DNA of 64,000 nt from Bacteroidia bacterium (lineage in GTDB: Bacteria; Bacteroidota; Bacteroidia; Palsa-965). Positions 1,412 through 63,880 of the stretch are shown one piece after another (positions within the stretch are counted from its first letter, which is position 1; the number at the start of each line of letters is the position of its first letter). A program made the translations under genes and the position numbers. The stretch is taken from NCBI GenBank assembly GCA_039918435.1, contig JBDSHN010000056.1, positions 7,756-71,755 of the forward strand. The letters are read 5' to 3'. Below the pieces are notes generated by a model that had not been told where the DNA came from, did no database searches, and was given only the letters and a program-made list of their open reading frames with translations.

Positions 1412-3154
1412 ATGAAAACAACTTTACGCGTAGCAACGGGATTGTTCCTGTTTGTTTCTTCATTTCTGACAGCGCAAAATGCAGCACAAAGGCCTGCAGT
1501 CAATCAGCCTTCAACATTGAACACTACCATTTCAACTGCACCCCAGGCAACAGGTTTTGAGCCAGCGCAGGATGTACAAATGGTAACGTGTACAGATAAA
1601 GTAACTTACGCTGACCGTAATCCACAAGCGAACCAGGATTTCTATTTGGGAGGTACTGATGGCTGGACGATTTTGATGATGAAATACCCTGGTTTCACAG
1701 GACAAGTTACAGGCGGTTTTGCATCTATGCGCAGAGTTGGGGCAAATTGCCCGGTGCGTATTGTATTATATGCATTGGATATTTATGGTAACCCGACAGG
1801 CGGATATATTGCCCATGTAGATGCAACAGTGAATAGCGCAACTGCAACAGAATACGGTGGAAATTTTACAACTGCAACTGCAGTAACATTTGGTTTTGCA
1901 GTTGGTGTTTTAATAAATTCTACCAATCCGACAGATTCTGTTTTTGTAATGGCGCATAATGATCCGGATATGGCAGGATATTCTTACACCTATTACAGCC
2001 CTACGCTTTACAATATTCAGAATGATTTAGGTGGTGAAATAGACATTTTGATCCGTCCGCAGATTTCTTATAATGCACCTACACAAACAATTTCAGCTTC
2101 TTCGACAACAGAATGTGCCGGTGTACCGATCAATTTCTCTTTATCCGAATCAAGTACACCAGATTTTTATTCTTACCCATGGGCTAGTCCAACTGCGCCA
2201 ACCTACGCATGGAATTTCGGCGATGCAGGAACTTCTACACTTGCTTCGCCAAATCATCCTTACGCAACCGCAGGATCATACACAGCAAGTGGAACAAAAA
2301 CAAACTCAGGCTGGATTTCCACTTGTGCATCTGCACCAGCAACAACAACGATAACAATTACCGGTGTTAGCCCGTCTGTTACAATTGCGGCAAGCGCAAC
2401 ATCAGTTTGTTATAACCAGACTGTGAATTTCAGCGCAACTCCTGCCAATGGCGGACCATCACCAACTTACGTTTGGAAAAAGAATAATATCCAGGTTGCA
2501 ACTTCAAACACGTATGCAGGTTCAACATGGGCTTATGGTGATGTTATTACATGCGAAATGATTTCTAATGCAGCTTGTGCATCTTCAACGCCTGTTGTAT
2601 CGAATCAGATCACTATGTTCACACAACCATTGGCGGTTTCTTCTTACAGCTATGCTGCAACACACCTTTCTGTTGCATTTACATCTACTGCAACAAACGC
2701 AGTTTCATGGTCGTGGAATTTCGGTGATGCAGGAACATCTGTTTCTCCGAATCCTGTTCACAATTATGCAGCGGCAGGAACTTACACAGTTGATCATTCT
2801 GTAACGAACAGCTGCGGAATTACAACAGTAAGCTCAATCAATATCACTGTTACCACCAATACAAATTCAAATGGCGGAAATACTGGTATCAATGATAAAG
2901 AACTTGAATTAAGCCTGAACGCATTCCCAAATCCTGTGAATGATGAATTGAACATTCAGTACGCAATGAATCACCCGACTGATGCTACAATTGAAATTTT
3001 AAATACACTTGGACAGGTTGTATCTACAGAGGTAATTGCGAATGCTTCTACAGGCACAGCGCAGATTTCTACTGCAAATCTTTCAACCGGAATTTATTTT
3101 GTACGCTTTACCGCTGCTGATAAAGTTTCTATGACAAAGATCGTTCGTCAGTAA
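1412..3154 (+). CDS. T9SS type A cargo protein with PKD domains
   Basis: Signal peptide; two PKD motifs (YAWNFGDAG, WSWNFGDAG); C-terminal AFPNPVNDELNI...GIYFVRF sorting domain. Confidence 0.85.
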   Translation: MKTTLRVATGLFLFVSSFLTAQNAAQRPAVNQPSTLNTTISTAPQATGFEPAQDVQMVTCTDKVTYADRNPQANQDFYLGGTDGWTILMMKYPGFTGQVTGGFASMRRVGANCPVRIVLYALDIYGNPTGGYIAHVDATVNSATATEYGGNFTTATAVTFGFAVGVLINSTNPTDSVFVMAHNDPDMAGYSYTYYSPTLYNIQNDLGGEIDILIRPQISYNAPTQTISASSTTECAGVPINFSLSESSTPDFYSYPWASPTAPTYAWNFGDAGTSTLASPNHPYATAGSYTASGTKTNSGWISTCASAPATTTITITGVSPSVTIAASATSVCYNQTVNFSATPANGGPSPTYVWKKNNIQVATSNTYAGSTWAYGDVITCEMISNAACASSTPVVSNQITMFTQPLAVSSYSYAATHLSVAFTSTATNAVSWSWNFGDAGTSVSPNPVHNYAAAGTYTVDHSVTNSCGITTVSSINITVTTNTNSNGGNTGINDKELELSLNAFPNPVNDELNIQYAMNHPTDATIEILNTLGQVVSTEVIANASTGTAQISTANLSTGIYFVRFTAADKVSMTKIVRQ

Positions 3155-3164
3155 TACGGTTAAG

Positions 3165-3260
3165 GAGTTTCGGGTTTAGGGTTCCGGGTTAAAAGTTTCG
3201 TGAAGTAGTTCTGAATTATAGCCCGGAACTACGAACCCGAAACCCGGAACTCTGAACCCG
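3165..3260. repeat. Low-complexity imperfect inverted repeat
   Basis: GAGTTTCGGGTTTAGGGTTCCGGGTT (3165-3190) faces AACCCGGAACTCTGAACCCG (3241-3260). Confidence 0.65.
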
Positions 3261-3359
3261 TTTTCTTTTTCCACTTGGTGAAAAGGCTGTTTAACTGTAA
3301 ATTTGTGACCCGCTAAAAACGAGCTAATTCGTATCTTACAAGCGATCTCAAAACTTACC

Positions 3360-3381
3360 ATGCAAGACGCAGCACCATACA
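3360..3381 (+). repeat. 22-bp direct repeat, left copy (duplicated icmF start)
   Basis: ATGCAAGACGCAGCACCATACA is identical to 5299-5320, the first 22 nt of icmF. Confidence 0.95.
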
Positions 3382-3394
3382 AATCTTATTTACG

Positions 3395-4654
3395 ATGTAT
3401 TTAAAGTCAATTCACCTCAAAGATTTCCGGTGTTTCAAAGAATTGGATGCAGACTTAAATCCTCGCCTTAATGTTATTGTAGGTGTAAATGGTGCTGGAA
3501 AAACCGCCTTTCTACAAGCCTGCCGAATTGCAATAGCTTCAGTATTGAATGGTTTGCCGTTTAGGTTAAATGAGCAAGTAGCATTGATGTCTTATGACTT
3601 AAGATATGATTACGATTCAAAGCATTATAAACGGCAAGATTTAGCAGTAATTGACTTTGAGTTTGATGCCCCCTATTTAAAAAACTCAAGATCGTTTAAT
3701 AAAGCAAAGCAGGTAAAATGGAGTTTTTCCGTTTCCGGTGATATTAAAAAGTGGTCAAAATCGGTAAAGAAAGATATATCAACTGGGAACAAAGTTGATT
3801 TGCCAGCACTTCTATATTTAGGTGCTGATAGATTTAAGGTAGAAAGAAAAGACTACGGAGAGCCTGCTATTGGAGAAAGATATCGGGGGTATTTCAATTC
3901 AATGAATGGTAAGTCTGCTACTTATATCTTTGAAAGTTGGTTTAAGAAAATGGAAATTAGTGAATTTCAAAATGACAGACAGAACCTAGGTAAAGATTTT
4001 TCACAACTTGAACTTTTAAGAACAGCAACATCTTCTTTTTATCCAAATGCCGAGCGATTATATTACGATACAGAAGTTGAACAACTTGTTTTGCTTCTAA
4101 AAAATGGTGAAAGAAAACCTTTACATGATTTAAGTGATGGAGAGAGATTCATGTTATTAACATGCATAACAATAGCCTTTCAGTGTATATTACTTAATCC
4201 ACACCATGATAAAAATGCGTTACAAGAAACGGGAGGGATAGTACTAATCGATGAAATTGATATGCACCTACATCCAGCTTGGCAACGAGAGATTTTAGGA
4301 AAGCTAACAAAAACTTTTCCTAAAATTCAATTTATCGTTACGACGCATTCTCCTCAAGTAATAAGTTCGATAAGAAGGAATGAGTTATTCGTTTTAAGTA
4401 ATTATCAAATTAACCATTTTACAAAATACAATGAAGGTCGAGACTCAAATTCGATTCTAATTGATGTATTTGGAGATTCAGGCCGCCCTTTTATTTATCA
4501 AAAAAAATTGGATGATTTTTATACTTTACTTGAAGATCAAAAAATAACTGATGCCGAAGAACTTATAAGTCAATTAAAGGAAGTTTGGGGCGACAACGAT
4601 CCAGCGGTATTAAGAGCTGAATTTTTCTTAAATGACGCAAAAGAAGATTTATGA
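3395..4654 (+). CDS. ABC/AAA ATPase, PtuA (Septu / retron Ec78 effector)-like
   Basis: Walker A GVNGAGKT, signature LSDGE, Walker B LIDEIDMHLHP, H-loop TTHSP; 4-nt overlap with the downstream HNH gene. Confidence 0.85.
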   Translation: MYLKSIHLKDFRCFKELDADLNPRLNVIVGVNGAGKTAFLQACRIAIASVLNGLPFRLNEQVALMSYDLRYDYDSKHYKRQDLAVIDFEFDAPYLKNSRSFNKAKQVKWSFSVSGDIKKWSKSVKKDISTGNKVDLPALLYLGADRFKVERKDYGEPAIGERYRGYFNSMNGKSATYIFESWFKKMEISEFQNDRQNLGKDFSQLELLRTATSSFYPNAERLYYDTEVEQLVLLLKNGERKPLHDLSDGERFMLLTCITIAFQCILLNPHHDKNALQETGGIVLIDEIDMHLHPAWQREILGKLTKTFPKIQFIVTTHSPQVISSIRRNELFVLSNYQINHFTKYNEGRDSNSILIDVFGDSGRPFIYQKKLDDFYTLLEDQKITDAEELISQLKEVWGDNDPAVLRAEFFLNDAKEDL

Positions 4655-5298
4655 AATTCATAACTAAAAATATCGGGAATGCCCCACCAAGCTTGATTCA
4701 GCATGGGCAAATTGCTTATTCAAATTATGAAAATTATCCAGATAAAGATAGTTTACGTAGCAGCCTCCGGGATGAACAAGGAGCGATTTGTTGTTATTGT
4801 ATGCAACGTATCCACGAAGGGCGGGAATACACAATCATTGAACACTTTATCCCACAAACTAAACATATTACGTCCCCATATTCGCAAGTAGAACACAATA
4901 ATTTTAGTCTTAAATATATGAATTTGCTTGCATCTTGTGGAGAATATGCTAACAATTGTAGTAATAAAAAGGCGAATCTACCTTTTTATGTTGATCCGAG
5001 AAATTTCATGATCGTTGATCAAATAAAATATGACAAAGGAGGAAAGATTTCATCTGACAACCCCAAAATTCAACATGATATTGATATTTTGAGATTGAAT
5101 GAAGCATCTTTAAAAAATGGACGTGCAACTATAATTGAAGTAGCTTACAAGTCATTCAAGAAGAATAAAAATTGGACAAAGGCTATGTTGGAAAATGAAA
5201 TTTCTCGGCTTGAAACTAAAAAAGATAATAGTTTCACGCCATTCTGCAGTTCAGCAATCTTCCATCTGAATAAAAAACTTAAACAATTTGCAAATTAA
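4651..5298 (+). CDS. HNH endonuclease, PtuB/TIGR02646-like
   Basis: EQGAICCYCMQRI, IIEHFIP, YMNLLASC, CSNKK; coupled to the ATPase gene. Confidence 0.8.
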   Translation: MKFITKNIGNAPPSLIQHGQIAYSNYENYPDKDSLRSSLRDEQGAICCYCMQRIHEGREYTIIEHFIPQTKHITSPYSQVEHNNFSLKYMNLLASCGEYANNCSNKKANLPFYVDPRNFMIVDQIKYDKGGKISSDNPKIQHDIDILRLNEASLKNGRATIIEVAYKSFKKNKNWTKAMLENEISRLETKKDNSFTPFCSSAIFHLNKKLKQFAN

Positions 5299-5320
5299 AT
5301 GCAAGACGCAGCACCATACA
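5299..5320 (+). repeat. 22-bp direct repeat, right copy (functional icmF start)
   Basis: Identical to 3360-3381; directly follows the HNH stop codon. Confidence 0.95.
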
Positions 5321-8300
5321 TTCCAAAAAATAAAATCCGCATTGTTACCGCCGCTTCCCTTTTCGACGGGCACGATGCTGCTATTAACATCATGCGCCGC
5401 ATTATTCAGTCGAGCGGCGCTGAAGTAATTCACCTCGGGCACGACCGCAGCGTATCCGAAATTGTAAATTGTGCTATACAAGAAGATGCAAATGCAATTG
5501 CAATCACTTCTTACCAGGGCGGTCACATGGAATATTTTAAATACATGTACGACCTGCTGAAAGAAAGAGGGTGCAGCACGATTAAAATATTCGGCGGCGG
5601 CGGCGGAACAATTTTACCTGAAGAGATTAAAGAGCTGCAGGAATACGGCATTGCCAGATTATATCATCCTGATGATGGACGCTCAATGGGTTTGCAGGGA
5701 ATGATCAATGATCTGCTTGAGAAATCTGATTATGCAACCGGCTTTTCTTTGAATGATGAAGTAAAACATTTAGATGCAAATGATCATATCGGCATTGCAC
5801 GTTTAATTTCTGCTGCTGAAAATTTTGGCGACAAGCACAGTGGTGCAATTGCAGAGATCAAAGCGCTCGCAAAAAAATCTAAAACGCCGGTTCTGGGAAT
5901 TACAGGAACTGGCGGTGCAGGAAAATCTTCGCTTGTTGATGAGCTCGTGCGAAGGTTTCTTGTTGATTTTAAAGATAAAACTGTCGGCATTGTTTCTGTC
6001 GATCCTTCCAAACGAAAAACAGGTGGCGCATTGCTCGGTGACCGTATCCGAATGAACGCGATCAACAGTCCGCGCGTATATATGCGTTCGCTTGCAACAC
6101 GCCAGAGCAATCTCGCACTTTCAAAATATGTAAATGAGGCAGTTGAAATTCTCAAAGCAGCGAATTTTGATCTGATCATTCTTGAAACTTCCGGCATCGG
6201 CCAGAGTGATACAGAAATTATTGAGCACAGTAATGCCAGCCTGTATGTGATGACACCTGAATATGGTGCAGCAACACAACTTGAAAAAATCGATATGCTC
6301 GATTTCGCTGACCTTATCGCGCTGAACAAATTCGATAAACGCGGCGCACTCGATGCATTGCGTGATGTAAGAAAACAATTCAAACGCAATCACAAACTTT
6401 GGGATATTGAAGATGAAATGCTTCCTGTAGTAGGAACCATCGCTTCGCAATTCAATGATCCGGGAATGAATCACCTCTACAAGATGATCATGGATAAGAT
6501 CGTCGAAAAAACGGGAGCAGATCTGAAATCAGATTTCCAGATCACAAAAGAAATGTCGGAGAAGATTTACATTATTCCGCCGGCACGTACACGTTATCTT
6601 TCTGAGATCACAGAAAATAACCGCGGTTACGATAAAAAAGTCCGCCGGCAAGCTGCTGTTGCGCAGAATATGTATGCGTTGAAAAAAGCGATGGAAATTT
6701 TTTCTGCCGTCGGTTCGAGCGAAGTCGAGAACAAGGCAGTAGAAACCCTGGAAGCAAAATATCAAAAATTGCTGCTTGATCTCGATCCGAAGAATTTGAA
6801 AATGATCGAAGAATGGCCGGCGAAAGTGAAGCAATACAAAGATGAGTTTTACATTTTCAAAGTGCGTGATAAAGAGATCAAAGTGGAAACACATTATGAA
6901 TCGCTTTCACATACTTTAATCCCGAAAATTTCAACACCGCGTTATTCGGCATGGGGCGATTTGCTCCAATGGATGATGCAGGAAAATGTGCCGGGCGAAT
7001 TTCCTTACACTTCCGGAATTTATCCGTTCAAACGCGAAGGCGAAGATCCGACACGCATGTTTGCAGGAGAAGGCGGACCGGAACGCACGAACAAACGTTT
7101 CCATTACGTTTCACTCGGACTTCCTGCAAAACGTCTTTCGACCGCATTCGACTCCGTTACACTTTACGGCCGCGATCCGGATCTCCGTCCTGATATTTAT
7201 GGTAAAGTCGGCAACTCCGGTGTAAGCATTTGTTGTTTGGATGATGCGAAGAAATTGTATTCCGGTTTTCATCTTGCCGATCCGCGCACTTCTGTTTCGA
7301 TGACCATCAACGGACCGGCTGCAATTCTCGCTGCATTTTTCATGAATGCTGCGATTGATCAGCAATGTGAAAAATACATTCACGAGAACGGCCTGGAAAA
7401 AGAAGCGGAAAAGAAAATTGCAGACTTTTGGAAGAAGAGTGGCATAGCGCGTCCGAAATACCAGGGCGATCTTCCGCAGGGAAATGATGGTCTCGGGTTA
7501 TTATTGCTCGGCACCAGCGGAGATAAAATTTTACAAGAAGATGTTTATCAGAAAATAAAAGCACACACGCTGACACAAGTGCGTGGAACCGTGCAGGCGG
7601 ATATTCTCAAAGAAGACCAGGCGCAGAACACCTGCATTTTTTCAACGGAATTTTCATTGCGCGTAATGGGCGATGTGCAGCAATATTTTATTGACAAAAA
7701 AGTCCGCAATTTTTATTCGGTTTCCATTTCCGGCTATCACATTGCAGAAGCAGGCGCAAACCCAATCACACAATTAGCGCTGACCATTTCCAACGGATTT
7801 ACATTCGTGGAATATTATTTGTCGCGCGGAATGAATATTGATGATTTCGCCCCGAACCTTTCTTTCTTCTTCTCGAATGGAATGGATCCGGAATATTCCG
7901 TACTCGGTCGTGTAGCCCGTCGTATTTGGTCGAAAGCGATGAAGCATAAATATGGCGGAAACGAACGTTCGCAAATGCTGAAATATCATATTCAAACTTC
8001 CGGTCGCTCACTTCACGCGCAGGAAATTGATTTCAATGATATCCGCACAACATTGCAGGCATTGTATGCGATCTATGACAACTGTAATTCGCTTCACACA
8101 AATGCTTATGACGAAGCAATCACAACACCAACAGAAGAAAGTGTTCGCCGTGCAATGGCCATTCAATTGATCATCAACCGTGAATTAGGATTGGCGAAGA
8201 ATGAAAATCCATTACAAGGTTCTTTCATCATAGAAGAGCTGACAGATCTTGTAGAAGAAGCAGTGCTTTCAGAATTCGACAGCATCAGCGAACGCGGCGG

Positions 8301-8682
8301 AGTTTTAGGTGCGATGGAAACAATGTATCAACGCGGAAAGATCCAGGAAGAATCGTTGTACTACGAACACCAAAAACATACCGGAGAATATCCGTTGATC
8401 GGTGTGAATACATTCCTCTCTTCAAAAGGTTCGCCAACTGTTTTGCCGAAAGAAGTGATCCGTGCAACGGAAGCAGAGAAACAATATCAAATTGAAATGG
8501 TGCATAGCCTGCAGAAAGCGAATGCGGATAAGTCGCCAGAGATGCTGAAACGTTTGCAGGATGTTGCGATTAAAAACGGAAATGTATTTGAGGAATTGAT
8601 GGAGACAGTGAAGTATTGCTCGCTTGGTCAAATAACGGAAGCGTTGTTTGAAGTGGGTGGGCAGTATAGGAGGAATATGTAG
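5299..8682 (+). CDS. icmF: Fused isobutyryl-CoA mutase / MeaB-like GTPase (B12-dependent)
   Basis: N-terminal B12-binding FDGHDAA, GTPase GTGGAGKSS, mutase domain with RMFAGEG (Phe) and [14 protein letters not shown]; 1127 aa. Confidence 0.93.
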
Positions 8683-8715: not shown

Positions 8716-8992
8716 GGCTAAAGCCCAAATCTTTCTGATTCACTTGCCACGGGCTGAAGCCCATGGCAAGTGAATGGGCTTTTCCAATTAATGGCTTCAG
8801 GAAGATGAAGCAATAGCAATAAAAAATATCTTCTGATTAATTGCTATTGAGATGAAGAAGACATTGAAACTATATATCAGTTCAATTGTTGCCGGAAGGA
8901 TGCATGGCAATCGCAATATTTTTTATAATCAAATCAATAGCCGCGGGCTTCAGCCCGTGGATATTAGATTTTTATTTTTTACGGTTTTAGCC
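8716..8992. repeat. REP doublet (REPIN-like) beside a HUH transposase
   Basis: CCACGGGCTGAAGCCCATGG inside hairpin 8738-8775 and its inverted copy CCGCGGGCTTCAGCCCGTGG at 8941-8960; outer GGCTAAAGCCC / GGTTTTAGCC arms. Confidence 0.75.
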
Positions 8993-9065
8993 GAATTAAC
9001 ACCCAATGCCTTTTAACAGTAATTACCCCCTTTAAAAATATTTGTTACTATTTCCAATTAAAAAT

Positions 9066-9073
9066 TACATTTG
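9066..9073 (+). promoter_or_regulatory. Bacteroidota -7 element upstream of the transposase
   Basis: TACATTTG matches TAnnTTTG. Confidence 0.45.
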
Positions 9074-9130
9074 CCGGAATTATATATATCAGTATTCGTA
9101 GTTAAGTTTTATTTATTTTATATCGAGATT

Positions 9131-9562
9131 ATGCCCTATACCAAAATTATGGTCCATTTTATTTGGGCCACAAAAAACCGAAAACCAATTATTACAAAAA
9201 AATTAAAACCAAAACTATTAGCGCATATAATTGAAAACGCTAAAACAAAAGGAATCTATATTAACACGTTAAACTGTGTTGAAGACCATATTCATCTTTT
9301 AATTTCATTGGGGAAAGAGCAAACCATATCTGATATTGCCATGCTGATAAAAGGAGAATCTTCCTTTTGGGTAAACAAACAAAAATTAATTGATGAACGA
9401 TTTTCCTGGTAAACAGAATATATTGCTTTGTCAGTTAGTGAATCCGGTATAGAAAATGTACGGCGATATATTGCAAACCAAGAGGAGCACCATAGAAATA
9501 AAACCTTTGCTGAGGAATATGATACGTTTTTGAAAATTCACGGCTTTACTGAAGCGGCGTAA
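9131..9562 (+). pseudogene. tnpA: IS200/IS605-family (RAYT-like) Y1 HUH transposase with internal nonsense codon
   Basis: HFIWATKNR, EDHIHLL (HUH), IKGESS; TAA at 9410-9412, then the frame continues TEYIALSVSES...VRRYIANQEEHH to a stop at 9560-9562. Confidence 0.85.
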
Positions 9563-29186: not shown

Positions 29187-31844
29187 ATGAAAAGAGTTAA
29201 ATCTATGAATGAATTTATTTTCAGGTTGCGTAATATTATTTTTACGAAACGAAATTTCGGTATTGCCATTCTCTTTTTGTCAATCGCATTTTCCGACAAA
29301 TCATTCGCTCAGGTAACGCCATCAGCGCAAAACAACAAAGAGGATTCGTTGTATTACACCTGCACCATGCATCCCGAAATACATGCTGCCAAACCGGGGA
29401 ATTGTCCCAAATGCGGAATGACGTTGGTGAAACATAAGCCGAAAGCCACCGCTCCGAAAACAAGTACGGCAACCGTTGCTGATTCGTCTTATTATACCTG
29501 CACCATGCATCCCGAAATACATGCTGCCAAACCAGAGAATTGTCCCAAATGCGGAATGACGCTCGTGAAACATAATCCAAAAGTTATTGAACCTGCTAAA
29601 ATCCCGGATGTACCAATTAGTACAACAACAGGCCATACAATAATCAACAACAACCCGCCAAGAACCGTTCGTTACGATTTATATATTACAGATACTGTTG
29701 TGAATTTTTCCGGAAAGTCAAAACGTGCGATTGCTGTTAACGGACAAATACCGATGCCTACGCTGGTATTTACGGAAGGAGATACTGCTGAAATTTATGT
29801 TCACAATATGCTCCATGAATCAACCACATTACACTGGCATGGCATCTTTTTACCGAATCAATATGATGGTGTTCCTTATCTTACACAGATGCCGATTGAA
29901 CCAAACACAACTCATCTGTATAAATTTCCCATCATTCAGCACGGAACACATTGGTATCACAGTCACTCCGGATTGCAGGAACAATTGGGAATGTATGGCG
30001 CTATGATTTTAAACAAACGAAATGAATCCGATATTCCAACTATTCCTGTTGTATTGAGTGATTGGACGGATATGAATCCCAAAGAGGCAGATCGCTCGCT
30101 TCATAATGCTTCTGATTGGTTTGCAATTGAAAAAGGAAGTACTCAAAGTTATTCCGAAGCTATTTCAAACGGGTATTTTAAAACCAAAGCCACAAACGAA
30201 TGGAAACGGATGAATGCTATGGATGTAAGCGATGTTGCTTATGATATGTTTTTAGTTAACGGACAAAATCAAAACGAACATCCTGAATTTAAAGCCGGCG
30301 ATAAAGTAAGATTGCGGATTGCAAATGCGGGCGCCTCCTCTTATTTCTGGTTGAATTATGCAGGCGGTAAAATAACTGTTGTTGCAACCGACGGCAATGA
30401 TGTTGAACCTGTAGAGGTGGACAGATTACTTATCGCAGTTTCCGAAACGTATGATATTATCGTAACCATTCCAGATAATAAAAACTATGAATTTCTTGTA
30501 ACACCCGAAGACCGCACCAAGTCGGCCTCCTTATGGCTGGGAAGCGGCGAAAAAGTTTATGCAGATAAATTACCAACACTCAACTATTTTGCCGGTATGC
30601 AAATGATGAATAGAATGATGAAAATGAACGGGAACCTGGAATCGATGGGCATGACAATGAGTAACCAGACGATGGATATGAATATGGTGATGTACCCGGA
30701 AATTACTGGCGGAGAAGATGGAAAGAAAAGAAAAAATCAGGACAAGAATGATACGATGATAATGCAGGCAAGTGAACCGAAAGAAATCATAACCCTGAAT
30801 TATGGAATGTTGAAGGCGACCGAAATAACCACCTTGCCGCCCGGGCCGTTTAAAGAAATGCATTTCGAATTGACAGGCAACATGAACCGCTATGTCTGGA
30901 CATTGGATAATAAAACAATTTCCGAAAGCGATAAGGTATTGATCAGGAAAGGCGAGAATGTCAGAATAATTATTTACAACAATACCATGATGCGGCACCC
31001 GATGCATCTGCATGGGCACGATTTCAGATTGCTCAATGGTCAGGGCGAATATTCGCCAATGAAAAATGTTATTGACATAATGCCCATGGAAACTGATACC
31101 CTGGAATTTGCAGCAACCGAAAGCGGAGATTGGTTTTTTCATTGTCATATTCTTTATCACATGATGAGTGGTATGGGCAGGGTATTCAGCTACGAAAATT
31201 CGCCTCCCAATCCCGAAATTCCAAATCCGAAATTAGCACAACGAAAATTATTTTCTGGCGACCGGGAATTTCATTTTATGGCCAGGGTAGGAATAGAAAC
31301 CAATGGAAGTGATGGTAAAGCAATGTTTGCACAGACGCGCTGGAAACTTGAAACCATGTGGCATTTGGGCTATCACGATATGCACGGTTACGAAAGTGAA
31401 ACAATGCTTGGAAGATATATCGGAAAAATGCAGTGGATATATCCCTATGCAGGATTTGATTACCATTATAAAAAAGATGGAGCACCCTCCGATAATTTTT
31501 TTAATCTTGAAAGCAGCCCACGAAATATTTTTGGAAGTGATGCTAAAAACTGGTTTGGACAAGCCAGTAATAAAAATAATCGTCATACAGTAGTCGCTGG
31601 AATTCAATACACATTACCTACGCTGACCGTAGCAGATATAAGGATTGATGGTGATGGGAATTTCCGTTTTCAATTGTCACGGGAAGATATTCCTCTCACG
31701 CCCCGGTTGCGTTTTAACTGGATGATTAATACAGATAAAGAATACATGGCTGGTTTCCGTTATATCGCCACAAAATATATTTCCGTATCAACGCACTATG
31801 ACAGTGACATGGGTTATGGTATCGGGATGACGTTTACTTATTAA
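29187..31844 (+). CDS. Multicopper oxidase (CopA-type) with two N-terminal heavy-metal-binding repeats and C-terminal beta-barrel-like region
   Basis: HWHG, WYHSH, HPMHLHGH, HCHILYHM copper motifs; 2x YTCTMHPEI..KP.NCPKCGM. Confidence 0.88.
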   Translation: MKRVKSMNEFIFRLRNIIFTKRNFGIAILFLSIAFSDKSFAQVTPSAQNNKEDSLYYTCTMHPEIHAAKPGNCPKCGMTLVKHKPKATAPKTSTATVADSSYYTCTMHPEIHAAKPENCPKCGMTLVKHNPKVIEPAKIPDVPISTTTGHTIINNNPPRTVRYDLYITDTVVNFSGKSKRAIAVNGQIPMPTLVFTEGDTAEIYVHNMLHESTTLHWHGIFLPNQYDGVPYLTQMPIEPNTTHLYKFPIIQHGTHWYHSHSGLQEQLGMYGAMILNKRNESDIPTIPVVLSDWTDMNPKEADRSLHNASDWFAIEKGSTQSYSEAISNGYFKTKATNEWKRMNAMDVSDVAYDMFLVNGQNQNEHPEFKAGDKVRLRIANAGASSYFWLNYAGGKITVVATDGNDVEPVEVDRLLIAVSETYDIIVTIPDNKNYEFLVTPEDRTKSASLWLGSGEKVYADKLPTLNYFAGMQMMNRMMKMNGNLESMGMTMSNQTMDMNMVMYPEITGGEDGKKRKNQDKNDTMIMQASEPKEIITLNYGMLKATEITTLPPGPFKEMHFELTGNMNRYVWTLDNKTISESDKVLIRKGENVRIIIYNNTMMRHPMHLHGHDFRLLNGQGEYSPMKNVIDIMPMETDTLEFAATESGDWFFHCHILYHMMSGMGRVFSYENSPPNPEIPNPKLAQRKLFSGDREFHFMARVGIETNGSDGKAMFAQTRWKLETMWHLGYHDMHGYESETMLGRYIGKMQWIYPYAGFDYHYKKDGAPSDNFFNLESSPRNIFGSDAKNWFGQASNKNNRHTVVAGIQYTLPTLTVADIRIDGDGNFRFQLSREDIPLTPRLRFNWMINTDKEYMAGFRYIATKYISVSTHYDSDMGYGIGMTFTY
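29343..29578 (+). repeat. 98-bp intragenic duplication (HMBD-coding)
   Basis: 29343-29440 versus 29481-29578, about 8 mismatches counted by eye. Confidence 0.85.
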
Positions 31845-38575: not shown

Positions 38576-38698
38576 GTTTATAGTGTGAGGTCGTGGCGGG
38601 ATGGAATATATTTTATTAAAGGTCAACTTTTTTTTGGGAATGAGAAGAAAGGAGCAGGAAAGTGAGGGGCAGGGGGCAGCAGAAAAAAGGGGACGGAA

Positions 38699-38745
38699 TC
38701 CGCCGCGGCGGAGGGACGGGGGACGAAAGAATCCGCCGCGGCGGA
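38699..38745. repeat. Two copies of the 14-bp palindrome TCCGCCGCGGCGGA
   Basis: 38699-38712 and 38732-38745, each followed by GGGACG. Confidence 0.85.
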
Positions 38746-38841
38746 GGGACGAAGAGACGGAAAGAAAAAGAGGCAGGAGGCAGGAAATTCCTCTGCGACC
38801 TCAGCCTCTCTGCGAGAAAACCGGGGGGCGGGGGCGGGGGC

Positions 38842-39047: not shown

Positions 39048-39084
39048 TATTCGTATCATTCGTTCCGCGGCGGCGGATCGTACC
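39048..39084 (+). repeat. 37-nt element abutting the dacB start
   Basis: 34/37 identical to 48020-48056, which abuts the nadB start. Confidence 0.85.
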
Positions 39085-39090
39085 AACTTT

Positions 39091-40677
39091 GTGAAACACC
39101 TCCTGAACAAAACACTTACGGTAAAACAAATTGCAGCACTGATACTGTTGCCGATAGTGCTGTTGGGTTCTTTGTGGTCCTTCATGACAAACGGCCAACC
39201 GGTGCTGGAGAAAAATAAAAAAACAGCAGTAAAAGATTCCACCGGTAAAGTCATAGAAGTAGTGCAGCCCGATACTTCGGCGATGGGACTTTTACTGAAT
39301 TACGTGGATTCGCTCAACAATGCTCCTGAACTTTTTGGCGGTGGCTGGAGCTATTCGCTTGTGGATGTAAACGACGGAAAACCGATTGTAAACGTAAATG
39401 ACAATCGTGGTATGATGCCCGCATCGGTGATGAAAATAGTAACTACCGGAACTGCGCTGAAATTACTGGGTCCCGGATTCAGATTCACTACATTATTGCA
39501 ATACGATGGAACCATAGACGCGACAACAAGAACGCTGAACGGAAATATTTACATACACGGCGGCGGCGATCCTGCATTGGGTGCGCCCGCATTTGGCAGC
39601 AGCGTGGATGGCGTGGTAAATGGCTGGGCACAGGCGATAAAAAAACTGGGAATAGACAGCATTGCTGGTTCAATAATCGGCGATGCAGAATCGTATGATC
39701 GTGATCCTGTTCCGGGTGGCTGGACGTGGACGGATATGCAATGCGATTATGGAAATGGTCCGGCAGGATTGAACATCCGAGAAAATCTGTACGATTTATT
39801 AATTACAGCTTCGGGTAACGGAACAAGCATTCGCACTTCGCCGCAGATTCCGGGATTGAAATTGTACAACCAGGTAATTCATAATGCAGCGATAGGAAAA
39901 TCGTATGCGTATGTGATGGGTGCGCCGTTTCAATTTGAGCGGACTGCAATGGGCGAAGTAGCTTCTTCGCTGCTGGAGCATGGTGCAATTCCTGATCCTG
40001 CTTTATTCTGCGCACAGCGTTTGAAATTACAATTGAAAGAATATGGTGTGCCTGTTCGTGATTCGGCAACCACTTTGCGATTGATGAAACTGAATTATTT
40101 GAAATCGGATGCGAAGGAAGGACGCAAAGTAATTACTTCAAATTCTTCTCCGTCACTTTCCGATTTGGTGTATCATACTAACCAGGTGTCGCAGAATTTT
40201 TACGCGGAAAGTATTCTCCGTGCTATTTCATGGAAGACGCGTGGTTACGGATCGACTACTTCTTCGGTAGGCATTGTTTATGAATTCTGGAGAAACCACG
40301 GACTCGACCTGCGCGGCATTTGTATGGTAGACGGCTGCGGATTATCTCGGTTGAATTCTATTACAACGCATCAATTGGTGGAAATGCTTCGTGTGTTTGC
40401 AAAAGATTCTGCAGTTTTTCCGTCGTTCTATCGTTCACTTCCTGTTGCGGGTGAATCGGGTACGATAAGAAAATTAGCAACAGCAACAGAAGCAGCAGGA
40501 AATCTCCGTGCGAAAAGCGGAACGATGTCGCGGGTAAAATCTTACGCCGGTTATGTGCGGACAAAAAGCGGAAAGCTGCTTTGTTTTGCGATGATCGGTA
40601 ATAATACGTTGTGGAGTGAAGTAGCGTTGAGGGATAAGTTTGAGAAGTTGTTTGTGCTGATGGCGAAATTACCTTAG
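39091..40677 (+). CDS. dacB: D-Ala-D-Ala carboxypeptidase/endopeptidase, PBP4 (S13) family
   Basis: PASVMK (SxxK), VSQN (SxN), AKSGT (KxG). Confidence 0.88.
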   Translation: MKHLLNKTLTVKQIAALILLPIVLLGSLWSFMTNGQPVLEKNKKTAVKDSTGKVIEVVQPDTSAMGLLLNYVDSLNNAPELFGGGWSYSLVDVNDGKPIVNVNDNRGMMPASVMKIVTTGTALKLLGPGFRFTTLLQYDGTIDATTRTLNGNIYIHGGGDPALGAPAFGSSVDGVVNGWAQAIKKLGIDSIAGSIIGDAESYDRDPVPGGWTWTDMQCDYGNGPAGLNIRENLYDLLITASGNGTSIRTSPQIPGLKLYNQVIHNAAIGKSYAYVMGAPFQFERTAMGEVASSLLEHGAIPDPALFCAQRLKLQLKEYGVPVRDSATTLRLMKLNYLKSDAKEGRKVITSNSSPSLSDLVYHTNQVSQNFYAESILRAISWKTRGYGSTTSSVGIVYEFWRNHGLDLRGICMVDGCGLSRLNSITTHQLVEMLRVFAKDSAVFPSFYRSLPVAGESGTIRKLATATEAAGNLRAKSGTMSRVKSYAGYVRTKSGKLLCFAMIGNNTLWSEVALRDKFEKLFVLMAKLP

Positions 40678-46130: not shown

Positions 46131-46295
46131 CGATCAAATTCATTTGTAATTATCAATAGTTAACGGGAGGTTATAGAGAATAGTGATAAAGTAATATTTT
46201 GGTAAGAGACGAATGTTGCGTTCTGCTGACACGCAATGGCCGTGTATAAACAAACGCCGCGAAACATATCGCGGCGTTAAACACACACTTACCAC

Positions 46296-46309
46296 TCCGC
46301 CGCGGCGGA
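46296..46309. repeat. 14-bp palindrome TCCGCCGCGGCGGA
   Basis: Exact copy in the nfuA-desaturase intergenic region, next to the hairpin AACGCCGCGA/TCGCGGCGTT. Confidence 0.8.
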
Positions 46310-46443
46310 CACAAATCTCCCGCCTCTATCGTCCAACACAAATCACACTTCACATTCTCCGCCACAAATCGCTCTTCACATTCTCCAACACATCTACAAC
46401 CTTCAATTTTTAATATTTTGAATTATGAATCATCAATTTTGAA

Positions 46444-48019: not shown

Positions 48020-48056
48020 TATTCGTACCATTTGTTCCGCCGCGGCGGATCGTACC
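48020..48056 (+). repeat. 37-nt element with TCCGCCGCGGCGGA core abutting the nadB start
   Basis: 34/37 identical to 39048-39084. Confidence 0.85.
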
Positions 48057-48060
48057 CAAT

Positions 48061-49623
48061 ATGTCAAGACAAACAGATTTCCTCATCATCGGTTCTGGTA
48101 TCGCCGGACTCACCTACGCATTAAAAGTAGCTGCGCACGGAAAAGTGCTGATGATCACCAAAGCAAACGAAGACGAATCCAATACCAAATATGCGCAGGG
48201 CGGAATTGCTGCAGTGATGTATGCACCCGATTCTTTCAACAAGCACATCGAAGACACATTAATCTGCGGCGATGGTTTGTGCGATCGTTCTGTTGTTGAA
48301 ATGGTGATTCGTGAATCCACAAAACGCGTTACTGAATTAGCAGAGTGGGGCGCAAATTTCGACAAAACTCCCGGGGGCGAATACGAGCTCGCACGCGAAG
48401 GCGGACATTCCGAGCATCGCATTCTTCATCATAAAGACATTACCGGTTTTGAAATTGAACGCGCACTGCTTGCACAAGTTCATTCGCATCAGAATATTGA
48501 AATCCTCGCGCATCATTTCGCAGTTGAAATAATTACGCAGCATCATCTCGGCATCGAAGTGAATTCACGCACACCCGACATTACCTGTTACGGCGCGTAT
48601 GTGATGGATAATTTTTCCGGTAAAGTGGAAACAGTTTTGTCTCGCATCACTTTAATTGCAACCGGCGGCGCAGGACATGCATATTCCACCACCACAAATC
48701 CAACCATTGCAACGGGTGATGGAATTGCAATGGTCTACCGCGCAAAAGGAAAAGTGGAGAACATGGAATTCATGCAGTTTCATCCCACATCACTTTATAA
48801 TCCCGGCGCAAAACCTTCTTTTCTCATCACCGAAGCCATGCGTGGTCACGGAGGAATTCTACGCACACGCGACGGAAAAGAATTCATGGAAAAATATGAT
48901 CCGCGGAAATCTTTAGCGCCGCGTGATATTACAGCACGCGCAATCGACAATGAAATGAAATCAAGCGGCGACGATTTTGTCTACCTCGATTGCACGCACC
49001 TCGATGCAGAGGATCTCAAAAGCCATTTTCCGAATATTTATGCAAAGTGCCTCACCATCGGCATTGATATCACAAAAGATTTTATTCCTGTTGTTCCTGC
49101 TGCGCATTATTTGTGTGGCGGAATCAAAGTCGATAAAAAAGGGCGCAGCAGCATTACAAATCTTTACGCTGTCGGAGAATGTTCCTGCACCGGCCTGCAT
49201 GGCGCAAATCGTCTCGCTTCAAATTCATTGCTCGAAGCCGTTGTTTATTCGCACGAAGCTTCCGCAGATGCGATCGCTCATTTTTCTTCCACCGGTTTTC
49301 AGTCAGCTATTCCTGACTGGAACGACGAAGGAACCGATGCGCCAGAAGAAATGGTACTCATTACACAAAGCACAAAAGAAGTGCAATCTATCATGAGCAG
49401 TTACGTAGGTATTGTGCGTTCCAATCTTCGTTTGCAACGCGCACACGATCGTCTTGAAATTCTCTGGAAAGAAAATGAAGCGTTGTATAAGAAGATAACG
49501 CTTTCACAACAGGTTTGCGAATTGAGAAATATTATCAACGTAGCGTACATCATCATCAAACAGGCGAGAGAGCGGAAAGAAAGCCGTGGCTTGCATTATA
49601 CGATTGATTATCCGCCAAAGTAA
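48061..49623 (+). CDS. nadB: L-aspartate oxidase
   Basis: GSGIAG, SNTKYAQGGIAA, AREGGHS, QFHPT, HGANRLASNSL. Confidence 0.95.
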   Translation: MSRQTDFLIIGSGIAGLTYALKVAAHGKVLMITKANEDESNTKYAQGGIAAVMYAPDSFNKHIEDTLICGDGLCDRSVVEMVIRESTKRVTELAEWGANFDKTPGGEYELAREGGHSEHRILHHKDITGFEIERALLAQVHSHQNIEILAHHFAVEIITQHHLGIEVNSRTPDITCYGAYVMDNFSGKVETVLSRITLIATGGAGHAYSTTTNPTIATGDGIAMVYRAKGKVENMEFMQFHPTSLYNPGAKPSFLITEAMRGHGGILRTRDGKEFMEKYDPRKSLAPRDITARAIDNEMKSSGDDFVYLDCTHLDAEDLKSHFPNIYAKCLTIGIDITKDFIPVVPAAHYLCGGIKVDKKGRSSITNLYAVGECSCTGLHGANRLASNSLLEAVVYSHEASADAIAHFSSTGFQSAIPDWNDEGTDAPEEMVLITQSTKEVQSIMSSYVGIVRSNLRLQRAHDRLEILWKENEALYKKITLSQQVCELRNIINVAYIIIKQARERKESRGLHYTIDYPPK

Positions 49624-63570: not shown

Positions 63571-63745
63571 TTTACTTCTTTGAGGATATAACGGTAGAAA
63601 CATGAATTTTGTTCTCAGCAATTGATATTTGGTGGTTGGGGTGGGGTGATTGGTTAAAGGTGATTGGTAATTGGTGATGGTAACAGGAGATTGGGGATTG
63701 ATTGGGTGAAAAAGGGATTATCAGCAACTTTCAGGCTCAGCAACC

Positions 63746-63880
63746 TTTTTACCAATCACCAATTACCTTATCTCGTAATTATTATAAGATTTTCGGCTCA
63801 GCAGCTTTTTACCAATCACCAATTACCTTATCTCGTAAATATTATAAGATTTTCGGCTCAGCTGCTTTTAACCAATTACC
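63746..63880. repeat. 60-bp tandem repeat (2.25 copies)
   Basis: 63746-63805 versus 63806-63865 58/60 identical; partial third unit. Confidence 0.9.

Follow-up and report, generated by a model that had tools for sequence, protein, structure and literature searches.

A Septu gene pair between the promoter and the start codon of icmF, bracketed by a 22-bp repeat of the icmF start

The icmF Locus and Its Insert

The window, which is the whole 64-kb stretch of DNA analyzed here, carries a two-gene insert at the 5′ end of icmF (Table 1). The 22-mer ATGCAAGACGCAGCACCATACA is present exactly twice in the window, both times on the forward strand and with 0 mismatches. No third copy was found in the window at up to 3 mismatches; two matches were seen in 0 of 100 shuffles, and 0 are expected. 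The repeat is exactly 22 nt long, the adjoining bases differ on both sides, and the two copies are spaced 1939 nt apart. The insert is 1917 nt in size. Its only contents, and the only two ORFs between the repeat copies, are ptuA and ptuB, which share an ATGA overlap. The TAA of ptuB (5296-5298) is immediately followed by the ATG of icmF, with 0 nt between them. The GC content of the cassette is 0.335 overall, against 0.44 in icmF and 0.42-0.44 in the background; it ranges from 0.31 to 0.36 within the cassette and from 0.40 to 0.45 outside.

This layout agrees with a preliminary description made from the sequence alone. An exact-match search confirmed that the 22-nt icmF start lies at 3360 and 5299 and brackets an ATPase and an HNH gene; the GC values bear out the AT-richness of the pair, and the repeat spacing of 1939 bp was reproduced by recomputation. 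The 14-codon mini-ORF opened by the left copy, with its stop overlapping the ATPase start, the overlap of the ATPase gene with the HNH gene, and the HNH stop abutting the icmF ATG are all seen on reading the sequence. The duplication does keep icmF complete, as its ORF is intact, and no recombinase is encoded between the repeats.

Table 1. Features at the 5′ end of icmF in the window.
Feature	Position	Strand	Description and evidence
Long imperfect hairpin	3153..3264	+	Inverted repeats, arms 20-32 nt, 78-90% complementary
-7 box TAAATTTG	3298..3305	+	Motif scan against TAnnTTTG; 55 nt upstream of the left ATG
Left 22-bp repeat copy	3360..3381	+	First 22 nt of icmF on the native 5′ UTR; exact match
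Leader ORF MQDAAPYKSYLRCI (14 codons and stop)	3360..3404	+	Truncated icmF start plus 13-nt leader; read from the sequence
13-nt leader AATCTTATTTACG	3382..3394	+	Only non-coding DNA that came with the cassette
ptuA	3395..4654	+	Septu ABC-type ATPase, 419 aa; PADLOC PtuA, Pfam, PDB 8EE4
ptuB	4651..5298	+	Septu HNH nuclease, 215 aa; PADLOC PtuB (8e-43, residues 1-212)
Right 22-bp repeat copy	5299..5320	+	Functional icmF start; identical to the single copy in L002
icmF	5299..8682	+	Fused isobutyryl-CoA mutase/MeaB-like GTPase, 1127 aa, intact; NCBIfam NF045497

The downstream gene matches NCBIfam NF045497 at 1778 bits (cutoff 1500) and the Pfam families B12-binding, MeaB, and MM_CoA_mutase. The gene name icmF in the preliminary description is therefore right in the sense of the fused isobutyryl-CoA mutase/GTPase. 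The reading as the IcmF of type VI secretion was rejected, since the protein is a B12-dependent mutase fusion.

The 5′ UTR upstream of the left repeat copy is homologous to that of the closest genome, L002. The leader ORF that starts in this copy reads ATG CAA GAC GCA GCA CCA TAC AAA TCT TAT TTA CGA TGT ATT TAA. Its stop lies 7 nt past the ptuA ATG in a different frame, and it overlaps the first ptuA codons. The 13-nt leader resembles the final bases before ptuA in L082 (TCTTATTTC-ATG), although the resemblance is weak as evidence.

The Bacteroidota -7 promoter consensus is TAnnTTTG. A sigma-70 promoter scan is uninformative for Bacteroidota, and this motif was therefore used. The same TAAATTTG is present upstream of icmF in L002, whose site is empty, and equivalent -7 boxes are found upstream of ptuA in L085, L176, L166, L082, and L180. 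This box is presumably the native icmF promoter, now driving the leader ORF, ptuA, ptuB, and icmF. The motif scan detected no TAnnTTTG-type -7 box in ptuB, and no terminator-like site was found on the + strand of the cassette. These observations are consistent with the capture of the icmF promoter by the cassette, and with a coupled relay from the leader ORF through ptuA and ptuB to icmF; co-transcription and translational coupling of these genes are predicted. In L174, the equivalent of the leader ORF stops ~24 nt before ptuA, so the tight coupling between the leader ORF and ptuA is not conserved. The hairpin lies after the PKD/T9SS gene, whose stop is at 3154, and ahead of the icmF promoter. 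It probably ends transcription here and would thereby separate the ptuAB-icmF unit from the gene before it.

A Stand-Alone Septu System

The ATPase and HNH pair is a stand-alone Septu system composed of PtuA and PtuB. PtuA matches the PADLOC PtuA model over its full length (5.7e-104, residues 1-413), the Pfam families AAA_15, AAA_21, and SMC_N, and the PtuA structure PDB 8EE4 (3.7e-44). Its Walker A motif G30-T37 (G30-K36-T37) and D286/E287 are invariant in the clade. PtuB residues C47, C50, E64-H65, H82, N91, C96, C103, and N109 are invariant among 10 clade members. The NCBIfam PtuB match (4.5e-21) has 75.7 bits, under a 150-bit equivalog cutoff that was built on retron Ec78. No sequence-level PDB match was found for PtuB.

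Retron-Septu (type I-A) was considered and rejected. The PADLOC I-A models score below the PtuA and PtuB models for this pair, an Rfam search of the window gave no match, and the neighbors of the cassette are the PKD/T9SS protein and IcmF. The pair is stand-alone Septu because it is accompanied by neither reverse transcriptase nor ncRNA. The Septu defense system was reportedly described by Doron et al. in 2018; its structures are PDB 8EE4/8EE7. The view in the preliminary description that the cassette is a defense pair is thus made specific by PADLOC and PDB 8EE4. The PtuAB pair of the window is predicted to have anti-phage activity.

Septu Pairs and Empty Sites at icmF in Relatives

In L002 (IcmF 94% identical in amino acids), the site is empty: the promoter, the 5′ UTR, and a single 22-mer are followed by icmF. 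The site is also empty in L054 (IcmF 88%). The intact promoter-ATG-icmF order of L002, with one copy of the 22-mer, shows that the cassette is an insertion relative to this close genome, as had been proposed. The preliminary description had suggested a search of relatives for empty sites or other cargo; besides these two empty sites, eight or more other Septu pairs, very different from that of the window, were observed at the icmF site.

In eight further lineages (P0004/L082, P0006/L084, P0007/L085, P0003/L166, P0011/L174, P0010/L175, P0009/L179, and P0013/L180), the ptuB stop is close to an icmF ATG, at an offset of -4 to +37 nt, and the genes on the upstream side vary. The IcmF proteins from hosts of this PtuA clade are 63-86% identical to that of the window. 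ptuAB was present at 0 of 80 reference icmF loci, and icmF was present at 0 of 80 other Septu loci. The PtuAB clade is promoterless, and its only address in Bacteroidota is between promoter and start codon of icmF. That one specific PtuA clade keeps to this start codon throughout deep lineages of Bacteroidota was overlooked in the preliminary description.

The nearest PtuA relatives of the window show 36-55% identity. A near-identical cassette elsewhere, which might have revealed a donor, was not found among 5.8e9 proteins, in which the best PtuA match was 55%; no donor allele was detected. In a metagenome scan with a PtuA profile, the matches listed were mainly distant Septu loci (26-33%), and they serve as a background set only. 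Viral contigs contained no close relatives of the cassette, their best full-length matches being ~30%.

The PtuB C-termini of the window, L085, and L166 all end in A(P)N and a stop placed right on the icmF ATG, whereas the PtuB proteins are 40-52% identical. As all three end directly on the ATG, the incoming DNA probably already held the icmF start.

A second, independent duplication of the icmF start was observed in L174, a deep Bacteroidota lineage whose best IcmF match is 70%. Its two copies are 46 nt long, 44 of the 46 positions are identical, and a 72-nt leader precedes ptuA. In its left copy, a lysine that is invariant in IcmF has been changed (K>N), which indicates that left copies do decay. 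Seven lineages with ptuAB at the icmF site have no repeat at all, and no decayed icmF-start remnant above noise was found upstream of ptuA in L082, L084, L085, L166, L175, L179, or L180. The sequence ATGCACACCTACA before ptuA in L178 was considered as a deleted remnant of ATGCA...CACCATACA, and multiple alignment gave no support for it.

Mosaicism and Age of the Cassette

The cassettes are mosaic, and closely related hosts have exchanged them. L178 and L082 have similar left flanks up to the -7 box, and after it the leader and ptuA are unrelated (PtuA 49% identical in amino acids). Between L082 and L166, PtuA is 79% identical and PtuB only 31%.

The dS between the icmF genes of the window and L002 is 0.84. 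The probability that a neutral 22-nt left copy stayed identical over this distance is ~exp(-22 x 0.42) ~ 1e-4. Nucleotide change at the 5′ end of icmF is slow, with 38 leading nt identical between the window and L002, and the age argument therefore loses force if a role in translation initiation constrains the left copy. Over its first 150 nt, the icmF of the window is closest to that of L002 (94%). Sliding identity against six relatives revealed no donor patch at the icmF 5′ end, so the donor would be a near relative, or the crossover would lie very near the start.

The IcmF tree places the carriers (window, L082, L166, L084, and L085) and the empty-site genomes (L002 and L054) in one clade. 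In the PtuA tree, the window falls outside the group of L082, L166, L084, L085, and L176, but by IcmF it is nested among them. From lineage to lineage, PtuA distances grow in step with those of IcmF, and the GC content of the cassette tracks that of the host. Both patterns fit long vertical residence, which makes retention with loss in L002 and L054 a real rival to recent gain. The deepest lineages share exact runs of icmF sequence of no more than 9-17 nt, which is not enough for RecA to anchor across them; the deep linkage therefore needs either an ancient origin or stepwise spread.

Target Duplications at Other Septu Loci

When flanking repeats of at least 16 nt were counted, target duplications (22-492 nt) were found at 8 of 59 Septu loci. 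Among control segments, the figure was 7 of 3708 (0.19%). The enrichment is ~70-fold over controls. Repeats of 53-492 nt occur at L091, L138, L118, L154, L117, and L144. The repeat-flanked units lie at unrelated targets, such as the dnaE 3′ end and the GmrSD start, with repeat lengths that vary from 22 to 240 nt; the ends of these units are 0-8 nt from the ptuB stop. In prophage or viral contexts, such repeats are less frequent (1 of 28). The suggestion in the preliminary description of a general route of defense genes into housekeeping operons has substance, as flanking target duplications recur at Septu loci.

[quoted passage not shown] It was first reported in 2000, and its mechanism is unknown in the literature (PMC2853133). 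Furuta et al. considered defense units of <20 kb without mobility genes whose repeat is a single copy at a related empty site, and required repeats of >30 bp as an operational threshold (PMC2853133). The cassette of the window is such a unit (1917 nt, ptuA and ptuB), and L002 has one copy of the repeat beside a homologous 5′ UTR. The 22-bp duplication of the window is below the threshold; those of L174 (46 nt) and six other Septu loci are above it.

Origin of the Cassette

The favored explanation, with a probability of about one half, is a locus-bound, promoterless Septu cassette that was gained without an integrase, by a homologous join on the right, in icmF, and an illegitimate join on the left, in the start of the recipient icmF. 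The cassette would be kept as a presence/absence and allelic polymorphism, and host recombination would move it between related genomes with icmF as the homology arm. The window lineage may have acquired or reacquired it fairly recently from a related donor in which ptuB was already fused to the icmF start. The ptuB/icmF junction is inherited and not newly made, which was overlooked in the preliminary description, and this suggests homologous recombination inside icmF as one arm, giving the right join. The left join would have put base -13 of the donor ptuA leader onto base +22 of the recipient icmF. The left repeat would then represent bases 1-22 of the recipient icmF and the right repeat those of the donor, hence the apparent 22-bp duplication. 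The same product could arise by single-crossover integration of a circularized donor fragment carrying icmF 1-22. Either way, one operon would result, read from the icmF promoter through the 14-codon leader ORF, ptuA, and ptuB into icmF. Homology-facilitated illegitimate recombination beside a conserved anchor is known (PMC5361080), and experiments have shown that the homologous segment can be duplicated when circles integrate by a single crossover (PMC3240628). The favored explanation accounts neither for the first insertion at icmF nor for the 0-8 nt ends at unrelated Septu targets.

An ancient, vertically inherited cassette is conceivable but rather doubtful. The repeat allele would have been present in the ancestor of the window, L002, and L054, and lost from the latter two through recombination or slippage between the 22-bp repeats; the copies would have stayed identical since both are constrained as translation-initiation regions. 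The single IcmF clade of carriers and empties suits this history, two losses being as parsimonious as one loss and one regain, and so do the scaling of PtuA with IcmF divergence, the GC tracking, and the conserved icmF 5′ end (38 identical nt and 94% over the first 150 nt against L002). However, at a dS of 0.84, the 22/22 identity of a non-coding copy is improbable unless it is constrained, and the left copy of L174 has decayed, including at an invariant residue. The four other clade members have no repeat, with their ptuA ATG at the position of the icmF ATG, so the repeat allele is not the ancestral form. The discordant placement of the window in the PtuA and IcmF trees and the allelic replacement directly visible between L178 and L082 also argue against it. 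It is unlikely that a naked ptuAB unit was inserted at a staggered break in the icmF start, with fill-in producing the 22-bp duplication. Such a break may have been provoked by the HNH nuclease of the unit. This history follows the selfish life cycle proposed by the Kobayashi group for restriction-modification units. The precedent of those units and the enriched, repeat-flanked Septu units at unrelated targets, with variable repeat lengths and very tight ends, would be explained in this way. The ptuB-stop/icmF-ATG junction, however, is common to the window, L085, and L166 despite the low PtuB identity, and is placed within a few nt in nine lineages; it is implausible that independent de novo events would strike one and the same base unless some mechanism targeted them there. 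In addition, icmF cleavage by PtuAB would have to be assumed, and the prophage/viral frequency is lower. One clade at one target with an inherited right junction suggests re-insertion driven by homology, not a series of de novo events. A broader form of this idea, in which Septu genes are self-promoting and selfish like restriction-modification genes, with the PtuAB nuclease, or breaks provoked by it, driving insertion with long, variable duplication and with an icmF-linked clade that has evolved a homing-like preference for the conserved icmF start, appears improbable. Empty icmF alleles would then be converted when donor DNA enters.

The preliminary description had offered two further origins, a site-specific element mobilized in trans and a reduced relic of a larger element. 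The former, CIME- or cassette-like, would have the 22-mer as an att core for a tyrosine or serine recombinase acting in trans, and both are very unlikely. Direct repeats at both ends, a precise empty site, and the recurrence of the same target gene in many lineages would be expected of it, but its att core and ends are not constant: the two repeat-bearing lineages have 22 nt with a 13-nt leader and 46 nt with a 72-nt leader, and the seven same-site lineages have no repeat. A CIME/IMEX-like element was rejected on these grounds. The cassette has no terminal inverted repeats or attC-like structure. A Pfam scan of 25 window ORFs with lengths of 200 aa or more identified no integrase, all matches being to core or housekeeping families. 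A relic would need two base-perfect deletions, and the repeats enclose non-coding DNA of just 13 nt at one end and 0 nt at the other, which leaves no room for scars of deleted genes. An integron cassette was rejected on the direct contact of the ptuB stop with the icmF ATG (0 nt) and the lack of a terminal palindrome, and a transposon or insertion sequence on the lack of terminal inverted repeats, the long and variable duplication, and the lack of a third ORF. Neither the window nor 11 related loci contain a tRNA or tmRNA, which rejects a tRNA/tmRNA-targeting island. No riboswitches were found. That the repeat is a false join of the assembly is barely credible. The window is apparently metagenome-derived, and its sole exact match is one Logan contig (run SRR26386594), possibly from the same sample. 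This contig, however, matches the window at 100% identity for 6267 nt, a length that takes in both copies of the repeat. The usual k-mers of assemblers are longer than 22 nt, the order ptuA-ptuB-icmF recurs in eight other lineages from different samples, and all three ORFs are intact. Taken as a whole, the cassette looks like a recombinase-free insertion by host recombination rather than a classical mobile element.

Implications

In most accounts, defense systems move with phages, integrative elements, transposons, or large islands. The Septu system described here is complete, yet it has no mobility genes and would use the expression signals of a housekeeping gene that is left intact. Its expression may follow the regulation of a metabolic gene. 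About 1 in 7-8 Septu loci have a flanking target duplication, which extends a signature known only for restriction-modification to a second nuclease-based defense system. Annotation pipelines seeking defense islands or mobile-element hallmarks will overlook such solitary cassettes. The conserved icmF target is a defined substrate for experiments on recombinase-free insertion. If Septu genes were selfish in the above sense, they would offer a mechanism for the long-target-duplication insertion reported in 2000 and a recombinase-free mobility that wires defense cassettes into housekeeping operons.

Comparison with Known Systems

The pair shares with Septu the two-gene architecture, the gene order, the overlapping ORFs, the full-length PtuA and PtuB profile matches, and the Walker motifs and HNH/Cys4 residues. 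Unlike characterized Septu systems, it is promoterless and embedded at the 5′ end of a housekeeping operon, and its PtuA is only a distant relative of the characterized proteins. Integron cassettes are likewise promoterless, ORF-tight, and dependent on a resident upstream promoter, but attC, attI, and IntI are absent here, and the repeats are target sequence. In "intronless homing", free-standing homing endonuclease genes such as T4 Seg/Mob are spread through recombination, and their flanks are co-converted. Like these, ptuB is a nuclease gene beside a highly conserved gene, present or absent among relatives. In contrast, homing leaves no target duplication, PtuAB is a defense complex, and icmF cleavage by PtuB would be purely hypothetical.

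Core defense hotspots are variable defense loci between conserved flanks, e.g., the cDHS of P. aeruginosa (PMC10250203). The icmF site resembles them as a fixed address with presence/absence and allelic diversity, no mobility genes, and low GC content. It differs in being occupied by one system type (one PtuA clade), with only the downstream flank, icmF, constant, and the insert of the window is base-precise between promoter and start codon rather than in an intergenic island. The insertion of restriction-modification units is comparable in that a small defense unit without mobility genes is flanked by direct repeats, single-copy at the empty site and varying in length between events, and in that repeats are significantly raised in frequency around the defense genes. 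Here, the system is Septu, and a single PtuA clade keeps to a single target, the icmF start. In the T6SS effector-immunity arrays of V. cholerae and in Rhs/CDI orphan arrays, with module displacement beside a conserved anchor gene (PMC5361080), whole orphan genes are left over, whereas the leftover in the window is 22 nt of a gene start. As in those arrays, a homologous arm would lie in a conserved gene beside a variable module, and as in the cases of PMC5361080 and PMC3240628, the other arm would be illegitimate, no integrase would take part, and the footprints would be leftover pieces of the resident sequence.

Septu Cassette at the Start of icmF

The two ORFs between the 22-nt repeat copies, the only ones there, encode a Septu pair and share an ATGA overlap. 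The product of 3395-4654 is PtuA (PADLOC, 5.7e-104, full length; Pfam AAA_15/AAA_21; PDB 8EE4 "PtuA", 3.7e-44), and that of 4651-5298 is PtuB (PADLOC, 8e-43, full length). The zinc-bound HNH nuclease residues, CxxC...EH...H...N...C...C...N, are kept across ten relatives of PtuB. No reverse transcriptase (Pfam scan) and no Rfam family was matched at the locus; the pair is therefore a stand-alone Septu system, and a retron I-A reading of ptuAB was ruled out. The TAA of ptuB directly adjoins the ATG of a 1127-aa ORF for IcmF, the fused isobutyryl-CoA mutase/GTPase (NCBIfam equivalog NF045497, 1778 bits, cutoff 1500). The relatives of IcmF are from Bacteroidota, and T9SS sorting domains and GldM are encoded in the window; by these signs the host belongs to Bacteroidota. 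The surrounding 64 kb are ordinary core genome. A Pfam scan of 25 ORFs of 200 aa or more detected no integrase, and the 64 kb contain no tRNA gene.

The repeat, ATGCAAGACGCAGCACCATACA, is exactly 22 nt long and has two exact copies in the window, spaced by 1939 nt. With up to three mismatches allowed, no further copy was found in the whole window, and none is expected by chance. A 14-codon ORF (MQDAAPYKSYLRCI and a stop) begins at the left copy and ends 7 nt beyond the ptuA ATG. The GC content of the insert is 0.335, against 0.42-0.44 in the surroundings. The Logan assembly of SRR26386594, possibly the window's own sample, matches at 100% identity over 6267 nt and spans both copies; that the repeat is an assembly artefact can be practically discounted. 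The features which the preliminary description had read at this site, namely the repeated icmF start around an ATPase and HNH pair, the mini-ORF, the overlapping and abutting genes and the lack of a recombinase, were all recovered.

Positions and lengths of repeats and junctions at the icmF locus and at other Septu loci (positions in the window, or within the named locus)
Feature	Position	Description
Window, left 22-mer ATGCAAGACGCAGCACCATACA	3360-3381	exact match
Window, right 22-mer ATGCAAGACGCAGCACCATACA, icmF start	5299-5320	exact match
Predicted empty-allele junction		...CTTACC ATGCAAGACGCAGCACCATACA TTCCAAAA...; 22-mer once, running on into icmF
Predicted circle/tandem junction		...GCAAATTAA ATGCAAGACGCAGCACCATACA AATCTTATTTACG ATG...; 22-mer once
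Window, flanking repeat		22 nt
L174, flanking repeat		46 nt
L091, flanking repeat		53 nt
L138, flanking repeat	4929-5003, 6906-6980	75 nt; left copy ends on ptuA ATG, other on GmrSD-gene ATG
L118, flanking repeat	4878-4958, 7052-7132	81 nt; 3' end of dnaE
L154, flanking repeat		about 140 nt
L117, flanking repeat	4601-4840, 7163-7403	240 nt
L144, flanking repeat		492 nt, about 75% identity

Other repeats are present in the window. GC-rich, palindrome-containing repeats with the core CCGCCGCGGCGG are intergenic (38696-38751, 39048-39095, 46293-46315 and 48020-48067) and look like REP-like or terminator-like elements. A 103-nt repeat at 29343-29583 has two copies with 91% identity, 138 nt apart; near the window end, at 63745-63864, 60 nt are duplicated in tandem (97%).

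Empty Sites in Relatives

Upstream content was examined at 80 reference-genome icmF loci, and neither ptuA nor ptuB precedes icmF at any of them. The closest, L002 (a Bacteroidota MAG, IcmF 94% identical), shows the same -7-like box TAAATTTG as the window, a homologous 5' UTR (ttcgtatcttacaag...) and a single 22-mer leading straight into icmF. The site is also empty in L054 (IcmF 88% identical). This upstream comparison bears out the earlier proposal of an insertion into the icmF start.

The window and L002 show a second presence/absence difference, adjoining the Septu insertion. At 1412-3154, between an aminopeptidase gene and icmF, the window encodes a 580-aa protein that has a PKD domain and, at its C-terminus, a T9SS sorting domain; in L002 this gene is missing, and the aminopeptidase gene is directly 5' of icmF. 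The sequences 3' of icmF differ as well. In the window, the segment directly 3' of icmF (8850-9450) has a GC content of 0.27-0.31 and only short ORFs.

Distribution and Exchange of icmF-Linked Cassettes

The nearest PtuA relatives in a collection of 5.8 billion proteins are 36-55% identical, and the DNA context of eleven was inspected. In eight (L082/83, L084, L085, L166, L174, L175, L179 and L180), the icmF ATG lies -4 to +37 nt from the ptuB stop, overlapping it in three of these eight lineages. Sequences of L176 and L178 end inside ptuB and that of L086, from which P0012 was read, within or shortly past ptuA, so these three are not scorable for icmF; the promoter region upstream in L176 and L178 is of the same kind as in the icmF-linked loci. 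The upstream genes of the eight differ (aminopeptidase, DUF4349, PrsW and others). IcmF from carriers is 84-86%, 69% or 63.5% identical to that of the window; the remotest of the hosts, L174, comes from a deep Bacteroidota lineage, with 70% identity to its closest IcmF match. Of 80 Septu loci at greater distance (PtuA identity 26-44%), none adjoins icmF. This clade of PtuA is tied to the icmF start codon.

One member of the clade, the P0008 lineage (L167-L173), is located away from icmF. Its cassette, present in 13 contigs from several samples, lies between ABC-transporter permease and methyltransferase genes with a 575-nt gap after ptuB. Neither a flanking repeat nor an icmF fragment was detected around it.

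A second duplication was observed in L174, where the host's own icmF start is repeated with 44 of 46 positions identical and the left copy ends 72 nt 5' of ptuA. In the left copy, one of the two mismatches replaces a lysine that is invariant in IcmF, indicating that this copy is decaying. The duplication is independent of that in the window. No repeat is present in the other seven icmF-linked lineages. In L166 the ptuA ATG is exactly at the icmF ATG position behind the native 5' UTR, and L085, L084 and L176 are similar. Between the deepest of these lineages, exact shared runs at the icmF 5' ends are just 9-17 nt.

Exchange of cassettes appears to occur mainly among relatives, in addition to long residence at the icmF address, as several comparisons imply. 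The left flanks of L178 and L082 are alike through the -7 box TACCTTTGA, and the leader and ptuA beyond it are unrelated (PtuA 49% identical), an allelic replacement between close relatives. Between L082 and L166, PtuA is 79% identical and PtuB just 31%. Cassette GC is below host GC in every case, yet tracks it, from 0.335 (host 0.44) to 0.467 (host 0.59), and PtuA distance rises with IcmF distance. The histories of PtuA and PtuB differ, and PtuB occurs in two sizes, 215-225 aa and 240 aa.

Flanking Duplications at Septu Loci

The 400 nt 5' of ptuA were compared with the 400 nt 3' of ptuB at 59 independent Septu loci in which ptuAB and both flanks are complete. Eight share an exact run of at least 16 nt, which extends to the flanking repeat given in the table. 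Mismatched flank pairs shared runs of at most 14 nt, and 7 of 3708 control segments of 1950 bp (0.19%) reached 16 nt. On viral contigs the rate was 1/28. The repeats bracket ptuAB alone and include no tRNA; in five of the eight loci the right copy begins -7 to +8 nt from the ptuB stop. The recurrence of target duplications agrees with the suggestion that this is a general route for defence genes. The target in L138 is the upstream region and ATG of the GmrSD gene, and a sugar-transferase gene is among the targets duplicated around unrelated Septu cassettes.

Expression

TAnnTTTG is the -7 promoter motif of Bacteroidota. Near the locus, the + strand has such a box at 3298-3305 and one more inside ptuA (3925); the motif scan found none in ptuB. 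No terminator-like site was found on the + strand within the cassette, and a long imperfect hairpin (3153-3264) lies 3' of the upstream PKD/T9SS gene. This arrangement fits a single transcript, which would start at the icmF promoter, include the leader ORF, ptuA and ptuB, with their overlapping or abutting stops and starts, and continue into icmF. The leader ORF of L174 ends ~24 nt 5' of ptuA, so the tight relay proposed for the window is an incidental outcome, not a conserved arrangement.

Across the window TAnnTTTG is depleted (44 sites against 66.8 expected; none of 100 shuffles had fewer than 44). Several sites lie just 5' of ORF starts (e.g., 1346, 3298, 9066 and 10869 on the + strand), as would be expected if the motif is avoided within genes.

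Origin of the Insertion

The best explanation, with a probability of about 0.5, is a locus-bound, promoterless Septu cassette gained by recombinase-free recombination anchored in icmF. The PtuB proteins of the window, L085 and L166, 40-52% identical, share the ending ...A(P)N-stop, and in each case the stop directly adjoins the icmF ATG. The right junction of the window is thus apparently inherited, and the incoming DNA would already have contained an icmF start; the right join would therefore lie within icmF, by homologous recombination. The left join would be illegitimate, bringing position +22 of the resident icmF next to position -13 in the leader of the incoming ptuA. With one-ended homologous recombination and such a join, resident icmF 1-22 would necessarily remain at the left side and its incoming counterpart would come to lie at the right; this route is known from other bacteria (PMC5361080). 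The same product would follow if a circularised fragment with icmF 1-22 integrated by a single crossover, which is likewise known from other bacteria (PMC3240628). The repeats of 22 and 46 nt and leaders of 13 and 72 nt would reflect different join positions in each event. The donor allele was not found and no donor-derived patch was seen in icmF, so the donor would have been a near relative.

The synonymous divergence of icmF between the window and L002 is 0.84, at which a freely evolving 22-nt copy would stay unchanged with a probability of about 1e-4; this suggests a recent event in the window. The two genomes do not differ in the opening 38 nt of icmF (5299-5336 and L002 6001-6038), and identity is 94% over the first 150 nt and 86% over the whole gene, indicating strong nucleotide-level constraint on the translation-initiation region. 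As the left copy may also be partly constrained, the repeat-based clock is only suggestive.

Ancient retention of the cassette, which L002 and L054 would have lost by recombination between the repeats, accords with long residence at icmF and is considered unlikely. [quoted passage not shown] The preliminary description had raised mobilisation in trans or reduction from a larger element. Bracketing repeats are in place, no integrase was found among the scanned ORFs and there is no tRNA; an att-site element moved in trans, or the remnant of a larger one, is very improbable. The observations of that description are confirmed. Of its interpretation the insertion and the general route are supported, promoter capture and a coupled relay would be consistent with the sequence, and the mobile element is not supported.

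Comparison with Known Systems

Insertion with long target duplication has been found for all types of restriction-modification units, lacking mobility genes and with an unexplained mechanism; its authors named double-strand breaks as a suspected cause and put forward, for these units, a life cycle resembling that of a virus (PMC2853133). A literature search found no paper tying Septu or icmF to such insertion. The operational criterion for such insertions is >30 bp; the 22 bp of the window falls short of it, and seven Septu loci, L174 among them, exceed it. The icmF locus of ptuAB is similar to core defence hotspots (PMC10250203), and icmF-linked ptuAB resembles integron cassettes in being promoterless and using a resident promoter. 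Unlike these two systems, the icmF locus is without attC or an integrase, hosts a single clade and is anchored by the downstream gene only.
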